This document shows, piece by piece, positions 8,674 to 60,850 of a stretch of 64,000 bases of DNA (the first letter of the stretch is position 1; every line of letters starts with the position of its first letter). Source of the stretch: a virus; IMG/VR virus record IMGVR_UViG_3300042502_001732, positions 79,933 through 143,932 of that record; one strand, given 5' to 3'. The position numbers and the translations under genes were made by a program. The notes under the pieces were generated by a model, which worked only from the letters and a program-made list of their open reading frames with translations, did not search any database and was not told the origin of the DNA.

Positions 8674-9682
8674 AGCAAGGTCAGTGTATTCTAGTTTCTA
8701 ACTGGTCTCAACCTTTCAGGCAGGTATCATTCCATCAATCTTCTTGGCGATTGATTGCCGTTTGGTGCTGGCATCATCATAACCTAGTTTCTAATTAGTC
8801 ATTGCAAATTCATCAATGAATGTTTCGAGAATGTCACTAGGTGCTTCAATGCTTATTGCGATAATCATGCGGTTAAATTTTATTTTAGTTTTTTATTAGT
8901 CTGGTGTATTTTTTAACTTATTATGAATAGATTGTTATGGTTAAGATTCCAGATTGGAATAAAAAGATTCCGCTGGAGGATAATAATAACACAAAATTAT
9001 CCTCCAGCGGATTTTACCACGATACTACACCTATAAAAAATTATATGATTTTAGGGAAATTAGTCACAAAACAATCCCTTGCGTATCTTTCTTTTGCGAT
9101 TCTTTGAAGGGGTATTTGCACAAGGCTTGAGCAAGCGCATAGGATTTTTGGATTTGACTGCTGTTAAAATCCCGTGGATGAAGTATCCAAGGATTAGAAT
9201 TGTTGTGAATCCAATTGAAAACCACACATAAAATGTGATGAATGTTTCGATTGTGAAGAATGATGTTGTTAGATATTCAATCATAATTTGATTATATAAT
9301 AAAGTTATTGATTGTCAAGAGAGTTGCATTGGTAGCCAAGGAATTAGTTATATGAAACGAACGCAAGAGATTTTCCTTGGCTACCTTTGCAAAATTATCG
9401 TATACCAGCAAGCGCATCAGCCACTATGCGTTTTATCAGACTTAATAATGTATGTAGAACTCACAAAGTTGTGATGACAAACTGATTATATTATCATCGC
9501 AACTTTATAAACATCATTTTATCATTTACCAGATGAGATTACTTCGTGTGTTTTGGGATTGATCATTCTCACCAGATAGTCAATGATGAATTGAGTTGAG
9601 TCTTCTCCTATTGGATGGCTACCTAGTTGGTTGCCCATGCGATAAGTTAGATAGTTTTCGTGGATGGTAAAGACTAGATGGT

Positions 9683-9988
9683 TCATTGTTTGGAATGTTT
9701 GATGTGAAAAGCCACAAAGTCTTCTGCGAGATTATCAATTAGTTCTTCAACAAAAGCACTGGCATCATCCATTGGGTGAAGTTCAAACTTTGAAACCGCA
9801 TCCCAAACTTCGATTTGCTTTTGATCTTCCTGCTGTTCTGATGTGCTGTATTCATCAGCGAGCAAAGCGAGAGAGAGTCTTTCAGCACTCCAATCTTTGG
9901 GCCATTTGGAAAGGAAATGACCTGCGGCGATTAGGTATGCTTCGGCGTGGAGGGGATTGTTAGTGTCGAGGAGGATGTAGTCTTGCAT
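9683..9988 (-). CDS. Hypothetical protein
   Basis: 101-aa ORF in co-directional block. Confidence 0.6.
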   Translation of the reverse strand: MQDYILLDTNNPLHAEAYLIAAGHFLSKWPKDWSAERLSLALLADEYSTSEQQEDQKQIEVWDAVSKFELHPMDDASAFVEELIDNLAEDFVAFHIKHSKQ

Positions 9989-10585
9989 GGCGTGAGGTTA
10001 GTTGTTTTGGGATTGCTTGTCAACAAGTTCTTTCGCGATTTCTTCTTTGAGGTCTTCCAGTAGATCAATGAAGTCAGAGAGTTCATCGTCCATAAGAAAC
10101 ATAGGAAGAATGCGGTCAATGATTGGTTCAGCAGGAAGCTCCCTTGTCAATTCGTAGTAACGCTTGAGTTTACAAGTATCGTGTGCGAACTCACCGATTT
10201 GTTTGATTGGTTGCATGGTTATTGTTCGATGAGGTTATTTTGTTTACAAAACTCGGCAATTACACCATTCATCTCCGTAAGAAAGTCGGAGATCATGAGT
10301 TCCTTGTCGAATGAGACTTCGTTGCCTTCGATGCAATATAAAAGGTCAACTTGGATTGTGGGTGGATTGATTGGTTGCATGGTGATTAGTCGTCAGCGTG
10401 GTGAGTTTCCATTAGTTCAGCAAGATAGCCGCGAATTTCATCAGCGGTTTCGCTTTCTCCTCCAGAGTATTCGTTAACAAGATCGAGAGCTTGATTGGCG
10501 ATTTCCTCAAGGGCTTCAATTGTGTTTAGTAGTTTTTCGATTGTGGTCATGTCAATAGTATAGTTTAGTTTCTTATTAGTGAAAG

Positions 10586-10686
10586 TGTGCTCCCCGCTAG
10601 GAGTCGAACCTAGGCTTCCAAGCTATCAGCAAAGCTATCCATGGTTTGCTTTGCTTTAGTGTTTGGTGTGCCAGCGCATCGGGGAG
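10586..10686 (-). ncRNA. tRNA-like ncRNA (acceptor stem + T-arm, no canonical D or anticodon arm), copy 1
   Basis: CTCCCCG/CGGGGAG stem; CTAGG-TTCGACT-CCTAG T-arm; motif A upstream; homologous to 60247-60409. Confidence 0.7.
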
Positions 10687-10713
10687 GTGAGCTTATTGTA
10701 AGTTAGTTTTTTA

Positions 10714-11196
10714 TTAGACGCTGGCAGGAATTTCTTCGTCCTCGTCGTATTCGACAAAGTTAAAGTTTTCTTTTGCAAACTCCGTGACATCAGCATCATC
10801 GACTTGGTTGTCGTCAATTTGACCTTCGGAGATGATAGCAGTCCCAGCAAACCAGCAACCGCTCTCAAAGTAGTCCAGCGTGAATTGATCGTTTGGAAAC
10901 ATTTCAGACAAAGCGGCAATGGCTTGAAGTGGTGGACTCCAAGCAGTCATAAAGGTTGCTTGAAAGTCTGCGATCTCGGAGATGAGTTGGTCAGCAACTT
11001 CACGCTGCTCTTCTTCGCTCAAGTCCCATTTGGTTCCCCAGTTTTCAAGTCTCCAATCATACCATCCATTGCCCTCAAGCAATTCGGGTGGCGTGGGTTT
11101 GATCTTCTCAAAAGAAAGACCATTTTCTTTTAGATAGCTTTCCAATTCTGGACTGCAATCCATGATCGACAATTTGTTTTCGCACCAGTTAGGCAT
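10714..11196 (-). CDS. DUF1281/YubB ferredoxin-like family protein
   Basis: MPNWCEN, WYDWRLENWGTKWD and TAWSPP motifs. Confidence 0.75.
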   Translation of the reverse strand: MPNWCENKLSIMDCSPELESYLKENGLSFEKIKPTPPELLEGNGWYDWRLENWGTKWDLSEEEQREVADQLISEIADFQATFMTAWSPPLQAIAALSEMFPNDQFTLDYFESGCWFAGTAIISEGQIDDNQVDDADVTEFAKENFNFVEYDEDEEIPASV

Positions 11197-11221
11197 AGTA
11201 GTAGTATAGTTTAGTTTCTTA

Positions 11222-11470
11222 TTAGTTGATCTTCATCAAAGAAAGAAGTTTCAATGTGATTGGCTTTTCAGCAACATGGAAGAAGAAACCATATTCCAAA
11301 ACCTCAATGTCGCCATCGACTTCGGCAAGAGAAATATAGTCATCGCCGTGATTATCAGCAACGAATGGGCCTTCGTCATCATAGCCGATAAAGTAAAGCG
11401 TATCGTTTAGATCGACAGCATAAGCGTCACCAAGTTCTTCGTGTAGTTGTTCAAGTGTGGTTGTTTGCAT
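11222..11470 (-). CDS. Hypothetical protein
   Basis: 82 aa, motif A upstream. Confidence 0.6.
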   Translation of the reverse strand: MQTTTLEQLHEELGDAYAVDLNDTLYFIGYDDEGPFVADNHGDDYISLAEVDGDIEVLEYGFFFHVAEKPITLKLLSLMKIN

Positions 11471-11830
11471 GTTGTTAGTAGTATAGTTTAGTTTCTTATT
11501 AGTGTATGGGAGTATCTCAAGTCTTCTTCGCTGTTGAAGGTGATGAAGTATTCAATTTCGGTCATATTAGGGTAGTTTGACATGGTATTAGTGGTGGTAT
11601 TTGTATTAGAGGAGATTGTGATCAATGTAGTCTTGAATGGATGGAATGCTTTCCATGTATTGCTGCAGATCAGCAATAATATCATCTAGATTCTCGCGGT
11701 TGTGAGTGTGGGGGCAACCAAGGTTGTTGTTGACAAGCTTGAGGATTTGCTCTGCGATTTCTTCGTGGGTTGGGTAGTGTTTCATATTGTTGCTTATATG
11801 GCTTTAGTGTAGGTTAGGAGTTGGGGTTAG

Positions 11831-12019
11831 TCAAATTTTTTCTGCATCCAAGTCGATGCCGTCATAGTCAACCCAGAAAGATCCTTCGATGTAGGAGCTT
11901 TCTTTGGGCAAAGGTCTTTCATCTTGTTCCGCGAGTTCAATCGCATCTTGCAATGATTCAGCTTCAATTTCCATGTATCCGTAAGATTCCCAGACACAGG
12001 GGATTTTGTATGTTTTCAT
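11831..12019 (-). CDS. Small hypothetical phage protein
   Basis: IEAESLQDAIELA...YIEGSF; motif A upstream. Confidence 0.6.
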   Translation of the reverse strand: MKTYKIPCVWESYGYMEIEAESLQDAIELAEQDERPLPKESSYIEGSFWVDYDGIDLDAEKI

Positions 12020-12216
12020 GTTGTTAGTAGTATAGTTTAGTTTCTTATTAGTCTACGAGAAACCTGCGCTTCCATTGTGATTCTTGCACTTGTTTATCAA
12101 GCCAAGATTGTTGTTGAAAGATGCGGATTCCATACACAGGTTTTTGTTTTGTAAAAAACAATGATATGATTTGGTCGAGTAGCTTCATGTTGTTATGATA
12201 GTTTAGTTTTTTATTA

Positions 12217-12567
12217 TTACCTTGCATTTAGAGCATACACAAGTCGGTTGTTAATAATGACACCATCGGCTTTGTCAATATACTTTGTTCCATCAAAGAA
12301 TCTTTCTTTTAGATATGGATTGTATCCTACGATTTGGTATTGATGTTGAGTGGGATCAAGTTCATTGGTAGGTTCTCCAATAATAAATGCGTGGACATTT
12401 TTCCTCTTTTGTTGCAACACTCTTTGTCTTCCTGCTTCACTCACCTTGAATGAAACATTCTTGAGATGTATTGCATCAACATGACGCATGACTTTCCACA
12501 CGCCATTGACTTTCTCTTGAACACTCAAGCGTTTTTTATGTAGATTGTAGTAGACGCGAACATTCAT
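12217..12567 (-). CDS. Conserved hypothetical phage protein
   Basis: VYYNLHK...FKVSEAGRQRV...KNVHAF motif set. Confidence 0.7.
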   Translation of the reverse strand: MNVRVYYNLHKKRLSVQEKVNGVWKVMRHVDAIHLKNVSFKVSEAGRQRVLQQKRKNVHAFIIGEPTNELDPTQHQYQIVGYNPYLKERFFDGTKYIDKADGVIINNRLVYALNAR

Positions 12568-19778: not shown

Positions 19779-20138
19779 ATGAAATGTTTAATTTGTGAGA
19801 AATCATTAGAGGGAAGACAGAAAAAATTTTGTAGTAGTAAATGTAAAAGTATGTTAGCTAATAATAAATTGCAAAATTATCAAGCACAGCAAACAAGGGG
19901 CAAGATAAGAAAAAAAAAGTTAATCGAAATGAAAGGAGGCTGTTGTGAAAAATGCGGTTATAATAAAAGTTTAGCAGCATTGTCTTTTCATCATTTGAAT
20001 CCAAATCTTAAAAAATTTCATTTAGATATTAGAAATCTTTCCAATAGGAAGTGGGAAATGATTATTGAAGAATTTAATGAATGTGAATTGTTGTGTTTTA
20101 ATTGTCATATGGAATTACATCATGGTTGCGAATGGTAG
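19779..20138 (+). CDS. Free-standing HNH endonuclease
   Basis: MKCLICE..KFCSSKC; CEKCGY..LSFHH..CELLCFNCHMELH; stop overlaps the tRNA 3' end. Confidence 0.85.
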   Translation: MKCLICEKSLEGRQKKFCSSKCKSMLANNKLQNYQAQQTRGKIRKKKLIEMKGGCCEKCGYNKSLAALSFHHLNPNLKKFHLDIRNLSNRKWEMIIEEFNECELLCFNCHMELHHGCEW

Positions 20139-20415
20139 GGGTGGAGGGATTCGAACCCCCACTCAATCGATTATGCTTACCACTATAGTTTTCACTACCC
20201 TTTCGGTTTGTGGTCTGGACTATCCCTTAATCTTCAGCATTACCTGTTAAGACTGAACTATTATAGTCTCTGCACGTCTCTCTTTCGAGATTTCGCTCAA
20301 GATTGGCATCAGCATTACCTGTTAAGCGTTCCTTGAATTTAAGTTCTGCTAACTTATTATTTCTAACAAGAAGACCCGTTAAAGTCGACTGCTTTGACCA
20401 TTAAGCTACACCCCT
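20133..20415 (-). tRNA. tRNA(CAU), probably Ile2, interrupted by a group I intron
   Basis: Exons 20383-20415 and 20133-20175 splice to AGGGGTG...GTCGA-CT-CAT-AA-TCGAT...CACCCCT-A-CCA. Confidence 0.9.
20176..20382 (-). mobile_element. 207-nt group I intron (IC3-like), no ORF
   Basis: Follows exon U33, ends in G; P1 GACU/GGUC with U-G wobble; AAATTC..GAA, GCAGAGACTA and GATAGTCCA core motifs. Confidence 0.88.
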
Positions 20416-27942: not shown

Positions 27943-28545
27943 TCACAATTGAGGGATATCTGTACGGAGATATCGAAAAAGCTCTAGGGTTTGACGAATA
28001 TCATAGGCAGCATCATGCGCGGCAGACTCATCCCATCCTAATTCAGCACATTGACACAGGGTTCCAAGTTTGAAATTTGGGAGAGCGCCTCGTACCCTCA
28101 TTGTCATCCATGCGGCGGCTTGCATCACACAGATTGGTGGGTTCCAAAACCAACTGCCAAAAAACTGATCTCCATTTTTCTCAAAAAACCTACGAATAAA
28201 ATCAATATCAAAAGCAGCGTTATATGCAACAAAGTGAAGCTTGTCCTTTTTATCAAACTTATCACAATGACGTCCTAACATTTCAACTAGTTGCGAATAT
28301 GCCTCTCGAGCAGAAAGAGGCAAATCACTTAAACTTTGGAGAGTCATTCCTGTTTTTGTGAGTGCTTCGTCCTGAACGCATTCTAGAGACAGTGGACGAA
28401 ATCTCAAATCGCATTCTTCAAGAACGTTAAGATTTGTGTCAGTGATTATTCCACTAATTTGAAATATTTCATTCCGGTCACGATCAAGACCAGTTGTCTC
28501 TACGTCAAGAAAAAAATGTTTGTATCCTGTGTATTGTGTGCTCAT
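27943..28545 (-). CDS. DEDDh 3'-5' exonuclease (DnaQ-like)
   Basis: DVETTG, YNAAFD, HDAAYD. Confidence 0.9.
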   Translation of the reverse strand: MSTQYTGYKHFFLDVETTGLDRDRNEIFQISGIITDTNLNVLEECDLRFRPLSLECVQDEALTKTGMTLQSLSDLPLSAREAYSQLVEMLGRHCDKFDKKDKLHFVAYNAAFDIDFIRRFFEKNGDQFFGSWFWNPPICVMQAAAWMTMRVRGALPNFKLGTLCQCAELGWDESAAHDAAYDIRQTLELFRYLRTDIPQL

Positions 28546-29075
28546 GATTGTTTATAATGATATAGTTTATGAGAAAGTTGAATGTTTGATAGTAAGAGGT
28601 GAGCCTCTGGAGTTGCTGGCCGGCCTATATGAGTTGAAAATATATTATGCACCACATTTGCGACAGAGATGTCGTCATCTGTATCTAAAGAAGACGCATG
28701 TGTTTCAAACTGGAAAGCCGATCGATATCCAGTTTCTGTTTTAGGATTTTGCGCGGCATACATCCAAGTTTGAGACTCTGGGTCCGAACAAACATATTCC
28801 CATAATTTTCCATAGTTGCACCATATTGCACTGATAATATATTCACGCACATTTATAGCGGTGTTGTTATAGTTTTTATACAGCGAGCACAACAATATTC
28901 CAGAACTTATAATCTCGTGAGTGTGGTTACATAGACCTCCAACATATGAGTATGGAGAGTCTGGTTCCAGACTCAAAGGACATGTCAAAAAGGTTGGTGA
29001 GTCAAGTACCGGGAGACAATAATCCACAGTATTTGAGTCCTCACACAGCTTTTTAAGTTCATCTAGTGTTAACAT
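28542..29075 (-). CDS. Degenerate HD-domain (YhaM-like) protein
   Basis: YVGGLCNHTHE; CNYGK in place of HD.GK; PATPEA. Confidence 0.4.
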   Translation of the reverse strand: MLTLDELKKLCEDSNTVDYCLPVLDSPTFLTCPLSLEPDSPYSYVGGLCNHTHEIISSGILLCSLYKNYNNTAINVREYIISAIWCNYGKLWEYVCSDPESQTWMYAAQNPKTETGYRSAFQFETHASSLDTDDDISVANVVHNIFSTHIGRPATPEAHLLLSNIQLSHKLYHYKQS

Positions 29076-53956: not shown

Positions 53957-53962
53957 AAAAAA

Positions 53963-54065
53963 TAGACAATGTAGATGGAATCGAACCATCGCCTCGGCGT
54001 TGTCGCCTATCCTATCGGACAAGAAACCCTTTGCTTGGGGCGTGCTACCACTACACTATACATTG
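53963..54065 (-). ncRNA. tRNA-like RNA with expanded anticodon/variable region
   Basis: Perfect CAATGTA/TACATTG acceptor, normal D- and T-arms, about 50-nt centre. Confidence 0.6.
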
Positions 54066-59271: not shown

Positions 59272-60246
59272 GAACAGACGAGAGTATAACCACCAAACTT
59301 AGAGCGCACGACGTTGTTTACATAGACTGCAATGTGTGATGCATCTTCTAAACGAATTCTAGTGTGGCTGCGAAAGATTGAGCGACGACTAGAAATAGAA
59401 TATTTGTGACGATTTGGATTATTTTTTCCAAGGCGGCCATAGAGGTCAACTCGTTTAAATTTTCCAACATAGTCTGGAGACTCCATCTCTTTCAAACGCT
59501 CTCTCAAATTATGAGTTTTTACCTCACGCCTCAAATGAAAGATTATTGTTTTTCCAACCTCGTTATTTTCAACCTTTAGTATTGTTCGTTGTGTGTTCAT
59601 ATTAGTTAAAGAAAAGATAGACTGCTTTGAACAGAGCGCTGATGAATCCAATCATACAGACTCCAAAAAATAGTGATATCAAGATGGCTAGTGGATAAAA
59701 ATGCGATAGTTTCATGGTTTGGTGTTTGTTGTTTAAAAGTATCCTCAGTGCTTTACAGCTTCAATTGGGGCTGAGGAGCCTCCCAGGTTTCTATCACCTC
59801 CGAATTGAACGGACTTTTGAATAATATTCTTATAGGCCACTACCAGGTCATGACTACTGGCTTTGCGATAGAGAAGGTTTTAAAATCTTATGTCGTTATT
59901 CTATTTGTATTTGTTGTTGTTTTTTTTGGAAATGGCACCGCAGGCTATGGAATTGCACCATGAAACTTTTTAACGCTCTCCCTGCGGACAAGAGGCTCGT
60001 TCCTTTTATCTCTGATTTCGTTTGCAACCTCCATCAGTAAATTTGTTTTTTGAAAATTTCCCGTGCCTAACTTTTGTTGCTGATGAAACACGGGCATGTT
60101 CGGTTTCCTTACTATTGCTGAGCAATCCTGGGGTCTTCCTATCATCAGAAACGGCTGTGTGAGTCCATCTGCACATTTAATTTTCTTATCTTCTCGAGCT
60201 GCAGTCTCTTACGATTGGGGCATTACCTTAAATTTGTTTTTGAAAG

Positions 60247-60409
60247 TGGTGTCCCCCGCGAGGAGTCGAACCTCGTCTCCCAGAGTTCATTCTAGATCAT
60301 TGACTAAGCTATTCATGTTTCGGTGGCGTTAACTCCAACCGGTCACATGCCCGGGATTCACTTAGTGTTTGTTCTAGAAGATCTACTGGCGGGCCAATAC
60401 TTCAGGGGA
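60247..60409 (-). ncRNA. tRNA-like ncRNA, copy 2
   Basis: TCCCCTG/CGGGGGA-CACCA; CGAGG-TTCGACT-CCTCG; long central hairpin. Confidence 0.75.
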
Positions 60410-60850
60410 AAATTGTTTTTTGAAAGTGGTGAGCAGTTTTAAGAGATGCTCAACTCTCTAGAGCGGTTTAACGAGTGCCCGAAGCTCAAAGCTTTTTAAA
60501 AGATGTTCAACTCTTGTGATTACCAACTACCGTTCATGGTTTGGATAAAGATGACGAACCAAACTGCTGCATTGATTCCGATGAAAATTCCTAATGTTTC
60601 TTTCATATTGTGTTGTGTTGCTTACATGGTCATTATACACTAAAATGCAGAGAAAGTACACAACTTTTTTCAAAAAAGTGAAAAAAGGCCCCGAAGTTAG
60701 GCCCCGTATAGAGAAATCTAGTGCTCCCAAGGTCTAAAAATGTCAAATTTACGACTTTTTATGCAAAAAATACCCACCAAAGTGTGCATCGTTGAGAGGC
60801 ATGGTGGGTCTGCTCGAGAGTTATATTTGACAAAAATCAAAAGAGTTTAT

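Follow-up and report, generated by a model that had tools for sequence, protein, structure and literature searches.

Paralogous phage genes for a predicted tRNA-like RNA with a constant frame and a fast-changing, self-complementary hairpin

Sequence comparison confirmed that two stretches on the minus strand of an uncultured virus genome, 10585..10686 (copy 1) and 60247..60409 (copy 2, a long form), are predicted genes for one conserved family of RNAs, of which they are paralogues and whose members are about 100 nt long. The window, that is, the whole stretch of DNA analysed here, comprises the last 64 kb of a 143.9-kb record estimated to be 69% complete; the phage has been seen repeatedly in lake-water metagenomes, from 2016 to 2024, and minus-strand genes surround both sites. 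Members of the family share a tRNA-like frame in which a long arm occupies the place of the anticodon arm. Divergence per site between members is 0.41 in the apical helix of this arm and 0.33 in its loop, against 0.15 in the tRNA-like frame and 0.12 in the lower arm; the apical hairpin thus changes about three times faster than the frame, and its pairing is retained through double changes, including changes to G-U. Because the frame is constant, the tip is fast-changing yet paired, and the centre of the loop is self-complementary, we favour, at a probability of about 0.45, a reading in which the tRNA half would be a handle for maturation and stability and the variable hairpin would be the working end, probably acting through loop–loop pairing.

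Copy 1, which was delimited by sequence, fold, a covariance model (R1; see below) and covariation, is formed by a 97-nt core and a 5-nt tail, CACAC (10589-10585), with no encoded CCA. On the minus strand, a 7-bp acceptor stem (10686-10680 with 10596-10590) encloses a 13-nt D region with UGG (10679-10667), a long arm (10666-10618), a 4-nt linker (10617-10614) and a T-arm with a 5-bp T-stem and the 7-nt loop UUCGACU (10613-10597). The fast-evolving apical hairpin of the arm (10628..10655), recognized by its divergence per site and its paired double changes, consists of a 12-nt loop (10647-10636) closed by a helix of 8 bp (10655-10648 with 10635-10628); the centre of this loop, CCAUGG (10644-10639), is self-complementary. 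The predicted fold has an energy of −35.2 kcal/mol (z = −3.2). The 7-bp acceptor stem and the canonical T-arm described for copy 1 in the initial annotation of this DNA are present in both copies, as is, in copy 1, the unpaired 13-nt D region with TGG; a 3-bp mini-hairpin predicted there by ViennaRNA for copy 1 and for the related element in contig L211 is not kept in other variants. The same annotation had placed an irregular hairpin where the anticodon arm would be; the replacement is borne out, but the hairpin is not irregular, being instead a conserved, covarying arm of 49 nt.

In copy-1 numbering, the acceptor stem pairs 1-7 with 91-97 and the unpaired D region spans 8-20, with an invariant UGG at 14-16. 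The lower arm starts with a helix of 21-24 with 66-69, followed by an ACA bulge (25-27) and a near-invariant 3-bp helix (28-30 with 62-64), from which the copy-2 form alone departs; the 8-bp apical helix (32-39 with 52-59) then closes the 12-nt loop (40-51), and the linker (70-73), the T-arm (74-90) and the tail (98-102) complete the molecule. In general the arm is 49 nt long, and contigs L202 and L204 have a 47-nt arm with a 10-nt loop. With its 3-nt bulge and near-invariant 3-bp helix, the lower arm is predicted to be a conserved hinge. In a MAFFT alignment, 93% of the cells are paired and 13 pairs are altered on both sides; in a second, more extensive alignment that had been fitted to the model, these figures are 96.3% and 15 of 27 pairs, and in the controls for the model-fitted alignment none of 500 shuffles was as good, with 35-51% of cells paired when the structure was slid along. 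Covariation is present in every helix. Seven of the 11 pairs in the arm helix (rows 28-39) are altered on both sides, all of which in the 8-bp apical hairpin, and the occurrence of G-U pairs in this helix shows that selection acts on the minus-strand transcript. The T-arm is 100% paired and the T-loop invariant; D regions are of the UGGCCCG type and linkers are GAGA or AAGC. The tail reads NNCCA, with CCA two bases past the stem, in 12 of the 15 distinct sequences, CACCU or CACCC in members with a CGCG loop, and CACAC in copy 1 and L211.

Copy 2, recognized by its sequence, its fold, its alignment with copy 1 and its R1 score, has a core of 158 nt and the tail CACCA (163 nt in total), with an acceptor stem at 60409-60403 with 60258-60252 and a T-arm at 60275-60259 (minus strand). 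Aligned with copy 1, it corresponds to the short form with two insertions, one extending the arm helix and one of 32 nt at the apex, so that an arm of 110 nt absorbs 61 additional nucleotides with the frame unaltered. The proposed homology of the two stretches therefore stands: they have the same frame, share both of the sequence motifs on which the initial annotation relied, and differ by a compensatory pair in the T-stem.

Pattern scans of IMG/VR and of JGI metagenomes, followed by the covariance model R1, gave 23 model matches including both copies, that is, 21 others; these represent 15 distinct sequences and all come from freshwater phage contigs related to this phage. One more viral contig, L218, repeats the sequence of L205. 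R1 E-values are rough; in bits, copy 1 scores 108.6 and copy 2 70.9, and the rest of the 144-kb record scores no higher than ordinary tRNAs (about 17 bits). The search of viral databases with a covariance model, suggested earlier as a check, has thus returned matches in related phages together with covariation in all helices, in agreement with a conserved family of tRNA mimics. A pattern scan of 185,579 prokaryote genomes gave no match to the family, and neither did blastn of both regions against deposited phage genomes. A relaxed pattern, with the D region and the T-loop as anchors, found known variants only; a loose D-region pattern hit at least 114 loci, mostly by chance, with no new member among them. 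As judged from these matches, the family appears to be narrow, being confined to a single lake-phage lineage, and shallow, as it comprises roughly five lineages of its own; it is an accessory element.

To what known class the RNA could belong was evaluated with ARAGORN, with Rfam 15 and by inspection of class-specific residues. ARAGORN called 21 tRNA genes in the window, neither copy among them. Searched against Rfam 15 for a known family, neither copy was called at the gathering score or at E up to 10, and this includes the tRNA model (RF00005); the best near-miss was mascRNA (15 bits, E = 1.7). With tRNAs the family shares a 7-bp acceptor stem and a 5-bp T-stem with a UUCRANY-type T-loop. 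It has no D stem, a 49-nt arm with a 12-nt loop stands in place of a 5-bp/7-nt anticodon arm, and CCA is preceded by more than the single base found in tRNAs; the ends of the real tRNAs of this phage are all NCCA. An intron-bearing tRNA was considered and rejected, as no removal from the arm would leave a 5-bp/7-nt anticodon arm. Acceptor pairs 1:72, 2:71, 4:69, 6:67 and 7:66 (five of seven; tRNA numbering) and positions 73 and 74 vary, which argues against a synthetase-type identity; charging by a specific synthetase is probably not to be expected, and we infer that the RNA does not read codons. When the whole record was scanned for a T-arm with a 7-bp acceptor stem, the tRNAs, the tmRNA and both copies of the tRNA mimic were retrieved, together with two further elements. 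One of these is an intron-containing tRNA (20137-20415). The other, at 53962-54065 on the minus strand (99-nt scan match, 53967-54065), is an odd tRNA-like element with no ARAGORN call, directly upstream of a tRNA-Gly gene; it has a 7-bp acceptor stem, an ordinary D-arm and T-arm and two additional hairpins, with a 4-bp stem and an 8-nt loop in the position of the anticodon arm.

The overall shape is that of the tRNA-like domain (TLD) of tmRNA, as initially noted: a stem-less D loop with GG separates the acceptor stem from a helix that replaces the anticodon arm, and a short linker leads on to the T-arm. The residues that mark tmRNA (RF00023) are absent, however, when the family is compared with the Rfam consensus and with the tmRNA of the phage itself: there is no G3:U70, no A73 followed directly by CCA, no UUCGAC in the D loop and no GGAC linker. 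All 15 distinct sequences have C-G at 3:70, which extends to the family the lack of G3-U70 first seen in copy 1, and position 73 is C or A with an extra base after it. In turn, the complete canonical tmRNA encoded by the phage (40816-41142; 84 bits with Rfam) bears all of these marks, namely the alanine pair, A73, UUCGAC and GGAC, and matches the model. As a positive control, the Rfam tmRNA model finds the TLD-only tmRNA of mycobacteriophage DS6A with 34.7 bits (E = 1.3e-12). We infer that the RNA lies outside the tmRNA/SmpB type. It had also been stated that no tag reading frame was evident; in fact, copy 1 has a 10-codon ORF starting at a shared AUG, and copy 2 has a similar short ORF, but the ORF is not conserved. 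A role as a tag or peptide ORF was rejected, as loops of the UGCA and CGCG types have no AUG and L008 has lost the stop codon.

The centre of the apical loop is self-complementary in all six loop types. In addition to CCAUGG of copy 1, it reads UCAUGA in L008 and L211, UGCA in the L166 group, CGCG in the L165 group, GCUAGC in L204 and L202, and CCCGGG in copy 2. In the four 12-nt loops the palindrome is at an identical central position, and the loop types differ by paired changes at mirror positions. Because the bases at mirror positions are too close to pair inside one loop, these changes point to loop–loop pairing. By our estimate, made on a small sample, there were about four independent paired changes of the loop centre and no unpaired one, the chance of each being paired under neutrality being roughly one in ten. 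In copy 2, the old CAUG is taken up in a pairing with an inserted CAUGU, which leaves a new palindrome exposed in an open internal loop; as read from the sequence, this rearrangement would stop the two paralogues of one genome from pairing together. The palindrome of the L204/L202 type can instead form a small hairpin of its own.

Three classes of predicted promoters end 6-8 nt before base 1. Copy 1 and L211 are preceded by an early motif, the −10 box of which ends 8 nt before base 1; for copy 1, the motif is at 10695..10709 (minus strand) with the −10 box TACAAT at 10700-10695, in line with the dedicated promoter initially assigned to this copy. An AGGAAC…TACAAT promoter ends 6-7 nt before base 1 in five other contigs, among them L201, L202, L205 and L214, and a TTGACA-17-TAACTT promoter with the same spacing is found in L203. 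Base 1 is a G in exactly the promoter-started forms, in which a G1·A72 mismatch is kept; the retention of this mismatch fits with base 1 being the predicted start of transcription. To account for the extra base of the tail, an acceptor stem of 8 bp and a G-1:C73 pair of the His type were considered and rejected: the base before position 1 is unpaired with 73, and the promoter-started copies have no base before position 1. Copy 2, L008 and L204 lie behind an ORF or behind a companion element, X (see below), have no promoter of their own and are predicted to be co-transcribed, as would be the case for a t-element; copy 1, L211, L201, L202, L203, L205 and L214 depart from the t-element arrangement. 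The co-transcribed copies would need to be cut at the 5′-end, for which RNase P is the obvious candidate. No terminator was found after any copy, and the next promoter or gene begins within about 10-30 nt. The samples listed for this phage include none of RNA, and three runs labelled metatranscriptomic gave no match over 9000-12500.

The early motif, AAACTA[AG]-NN-TANNNT, occurs in about 30 copies between 6547 and 22703, all on the minus strand and each preceding a small gene or RNA; the window as a whole has 38 matches, against 12.7 expected. L211 is the sole other element of the copy-1 type and has the identical promoter motif, spacing and neighbours. In eight close relatives, in which the flanking 160-aa protein is 84-94% identical, the copy-1 site carries other cargo. 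In one lake metagenome, moreover, the assembly branches at 10724 (10724-10753) and leads to the cargo of L121-L125 and L127, not to the copy-1 cassette, which indicates that phages with and without copy 1 co-exist. At the copy-1 site, L126 (6490-6570) and L128 (6480-6560), both on the plus strand, have another structured element, which is GC-rich and contains nested inverted repeats.

A near-identical version of copy 2 is present in L007. At the copy-2 locus, the element is found only in the closest relatives (neighbour protein at least 95% identical); relatives in which a 198-aa neighbour gene is 75-83% identical have no tRNA-mimic element within 3.5 kb. Directly upstream of copy 2 is element X, of about 61 nt (60427..60487, minus strand), which was delimited by its fold and by comparing the flanks of 20 loci, and which has an 8-nt palindrome and a hairpin ending in CCA. 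X precedes the tRNA mimic in copy 2 and in the L166 group and follows it in L008, L202, L204 and L205; a TACAAT-type promoter is dedicated to X in L202 and L204. X gave no match in Rfam. Pairing between X and the D region was considered and rejected, since the 5-nt complementarity shows no covariation. A third candidate for a small hairpin RNA is present at 59933-59987 (minus strand), with a 7-bp closing stem and the tail UGCCA, followed by the same A-rich spacer as that found after X and copy 2. Two nearby hairpin RNAs that are not tRNA-like thus likewise end in CCA ahead of the same spacer, which fits with CCA being a general 3′-end device in this phage. The variable region that contains copy 2 also matches the abiF RNA motif (RF03085; 60772-60808, minus strand; 47 bits against a cut-off of 37), about 360 nt upstream of that copy and with a U-run behind it. 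L168 has this motif as well, and the phage could here carry a copy of an RNA from a host Abi system. A 28-codon ORF for a hydrophobic peptide (60520-60606, minus strand) lies behind a host-type promoter, TTGTGT-17-TATAAT, which is retained in relatives ahead of different small ORFs.

In the reading that we favour, the tRNA half would be a constant handle that gives the molecule a tRNA-type maturation and stability: RNase P would cut the 5′-end where the RNA is co-transcribed, the 3′-end would be trimmed back to CCA, and a compact elbow and a protected, CCA-type 3′-end would result. The hinge and the variable hairpin would form the working part, and the hairpin would pair loop-to-loop, its partner being either a second copy of the same RNA, as in a kissing dimer, or another RNA that matches it. 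Against this reading, the T-loop, the GG and most of the linker are completely invariant, which suits mimicry as the function equally well, and the NNCCA tail is unlike the NCCA of tRNAs, with copy 1 devoid of CCA. We regard as doubtful a specific form of the proposal in which the molecules, joined at the self-complementary loop, would act as a dimeric tRNA mimic with the variable loop and helix as a specificity code. Were this the case, the code would prevent cross-pairing of paralogues in one cell, or of the RNAs of co-infecting phages, and the tRNA-shaped ends could bridge two tRNA-binding sites, for example those of a dimeric enzyme or of two ribosomes. The main rival to the scaffold is that mimicry is itself the function. 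The RNA, as a decoy or as a competitor, would then occupy a host factor that reads the tRNA elbow and the acceptor/CCA end; candidates are a tRNA-processing enzyme or a defence toxin that acts on tRNA 3′-ends by modification or cleavage, such as AbiE/MenT-type nucleotidyltransferases or acceptor-stem nucleases. We consider this rival unlikely, though less so than any other alternative. As it would predict, conservation extends to the T-loop, to the D-region GG and, in the 12 sequences mentioned above, to CCA; copy 1 is replaceable and belongs to an array of early, one-promoter cassettes, as is typical of accessory or counter-defence genes, and copy 2 is in a variable region after a tail-fibre gene and downstream of the abiF-type motif. 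However, a decoy leaves the hypervariable but paired tip and the palindromic loop centre unexplained, no partner protein is known, and the extra base before CCA, or the lack of CCA in copy 1, makes for an imperfect tRNA end. A decoy for anticodon nucleases, as first proposed, is not supported, there being no anticodon loop to cut.

It is also conceivable, with a lower probability still, that the shape is a processing signal only, as in t-elements or mascRNA, guiding RNase P and 3′-trimming with no role for the RNA released. The lack of terminators, the short distance to the next promoter or gene and the co-transcription of copy 2, L008 and L204 would be accounted for, and t-elements are documented (PMC1920247); yet promoters that fire at base 1 leave no upstream part to remove, and an encoded CCA, a conserved hinge and paired changes of the loop centre would be superfluous in a cutting signal. 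A decoy for SmpB or trans-translation, the second target put forward initially, has the precedent of DS6A, with whose RNA the family has its ground plan in common, and inhibition of tmRNA by a TLD-only molecule has been reported in Escherichia coli (PMC4131195; PMC11915505). We nevertheless find it improbable. The sequence marks of the tmRNA domain are missing, and the Rfam tmRNA model, which finds DS6A, is blank on both copies at E up to 10. Genes for SmpB, TROVE, a CCA-adding enzyme and RtcB were searched for in the 144-kb record (about 69% of the genome) and none was found; the phage has a full tmRNA, and titration of host SmpB, if the phage relies on it, would disable this tmRNA too. Hardly tenable, finally, is the view that the two copies are decayed tRNA genes or remnants damaged by phage homing-endonuclease cassettes. 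The 21 tRNA genes of the window and the tRNA-like acceptor stem and T-arm would agree with it, but not the compensatory changes in all helices, the dedicated promoters or the presence of the same non-tRNA arm in two paralogues, and no endonuclease gene is found beside either copy.

Non-decoding tRNA look-alikes of phages are barely explored; those described are the TLD-only RNA of DS6A and RNAC and RNAD of T4, none of which has a settled function. The family offers a clean case outside the alanine/tmRNA type, with a well-supported fold, dedicated promoters and a constant frame set against a fast, self-complementary tip, and its layout suggests a natural ‘tRNA scaffold’ bearing a specificity hairpin. 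Its present weight is moderate, because the family is narrow and its RNA is a predicted one. The RNA of DS6A, which we located at 28478-28556 of JN698994 (79 nt), is likewise phage-encoded; its acceptor stem has 7 bp, its D region has GG but no stem, a hairpin takes the place of the anticodon arm, and a linker of 3-4 nt and a canonical T-arm follow, with no tag frame (PMC4131195; PMC11915505). The tRNA mimic differs in lacking the tmRNA marks listed above, in escaping the Rfam tmRNA model and in having an arm of 49 nt instead of about 31 nt, with a hinge, a hypervariable palindromic tip and an NNCCA tail. RNAC and RNAD of T4 (species 1 and 2) are also small phage RNAs tied to tRNA genes (PMC3014915; PMC9697503). 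RNAC (139 nt) has, like the family, a canonical T-arm and an acceptor-like closing stem that encloses a long insert, but it scores 18.8 bits with R1, the level of an ordinary tRNA, has a different interior and shows no sequence relationship; the T4 RNAs are not known to have a palindromic loop.

Plant mitochondrial t-elements (PMC1920247) and mascRNA resemble the family as non-decoding, tRNA-shaped modules that are cut by tRNA-processing enzymes. In contrast to these, several copies of the mimic have a promoter that starts at base 1, most encode CCA, and the arm appears to be under selection of its own. YrlA has the reverse topology: its long helix is closed by the two ends of the RNA and its acceptor-like stem is capped, whereas the tRNA mimic has its ends at the acceptor stem. 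YrlA is nonetheless also a noncoding mimic of the elbow, with a T-arm and a D-loop GG and with a long helix for the anticodon arm (PMC4201824), and against membership of the Y RNAs there is neither a Ro/TROVE gene in the record nor an Rfam match. As for the loop, unrelated molecules offer an analogy to the proposed dimerization of the tRNA mimic. Kissing loops are formed by the dimerization initiation site of HIV-1 and by the dimerization loop of oskar mRNA. The apical loop of the tRNA mimic would resemble these in having a central palindrome of 4-6 nt in a purine-flanked loop and variants that differ by paired changes. What appears from the sequences to be new in the lake-phage RNA, relative to all of these systems, is that its identity is not of the alanine type, that its tail is NNCCA, that its long arm combines a conserved hinge with a self-complementary tip that is hypervariable, and that its promoters fire at base 1.
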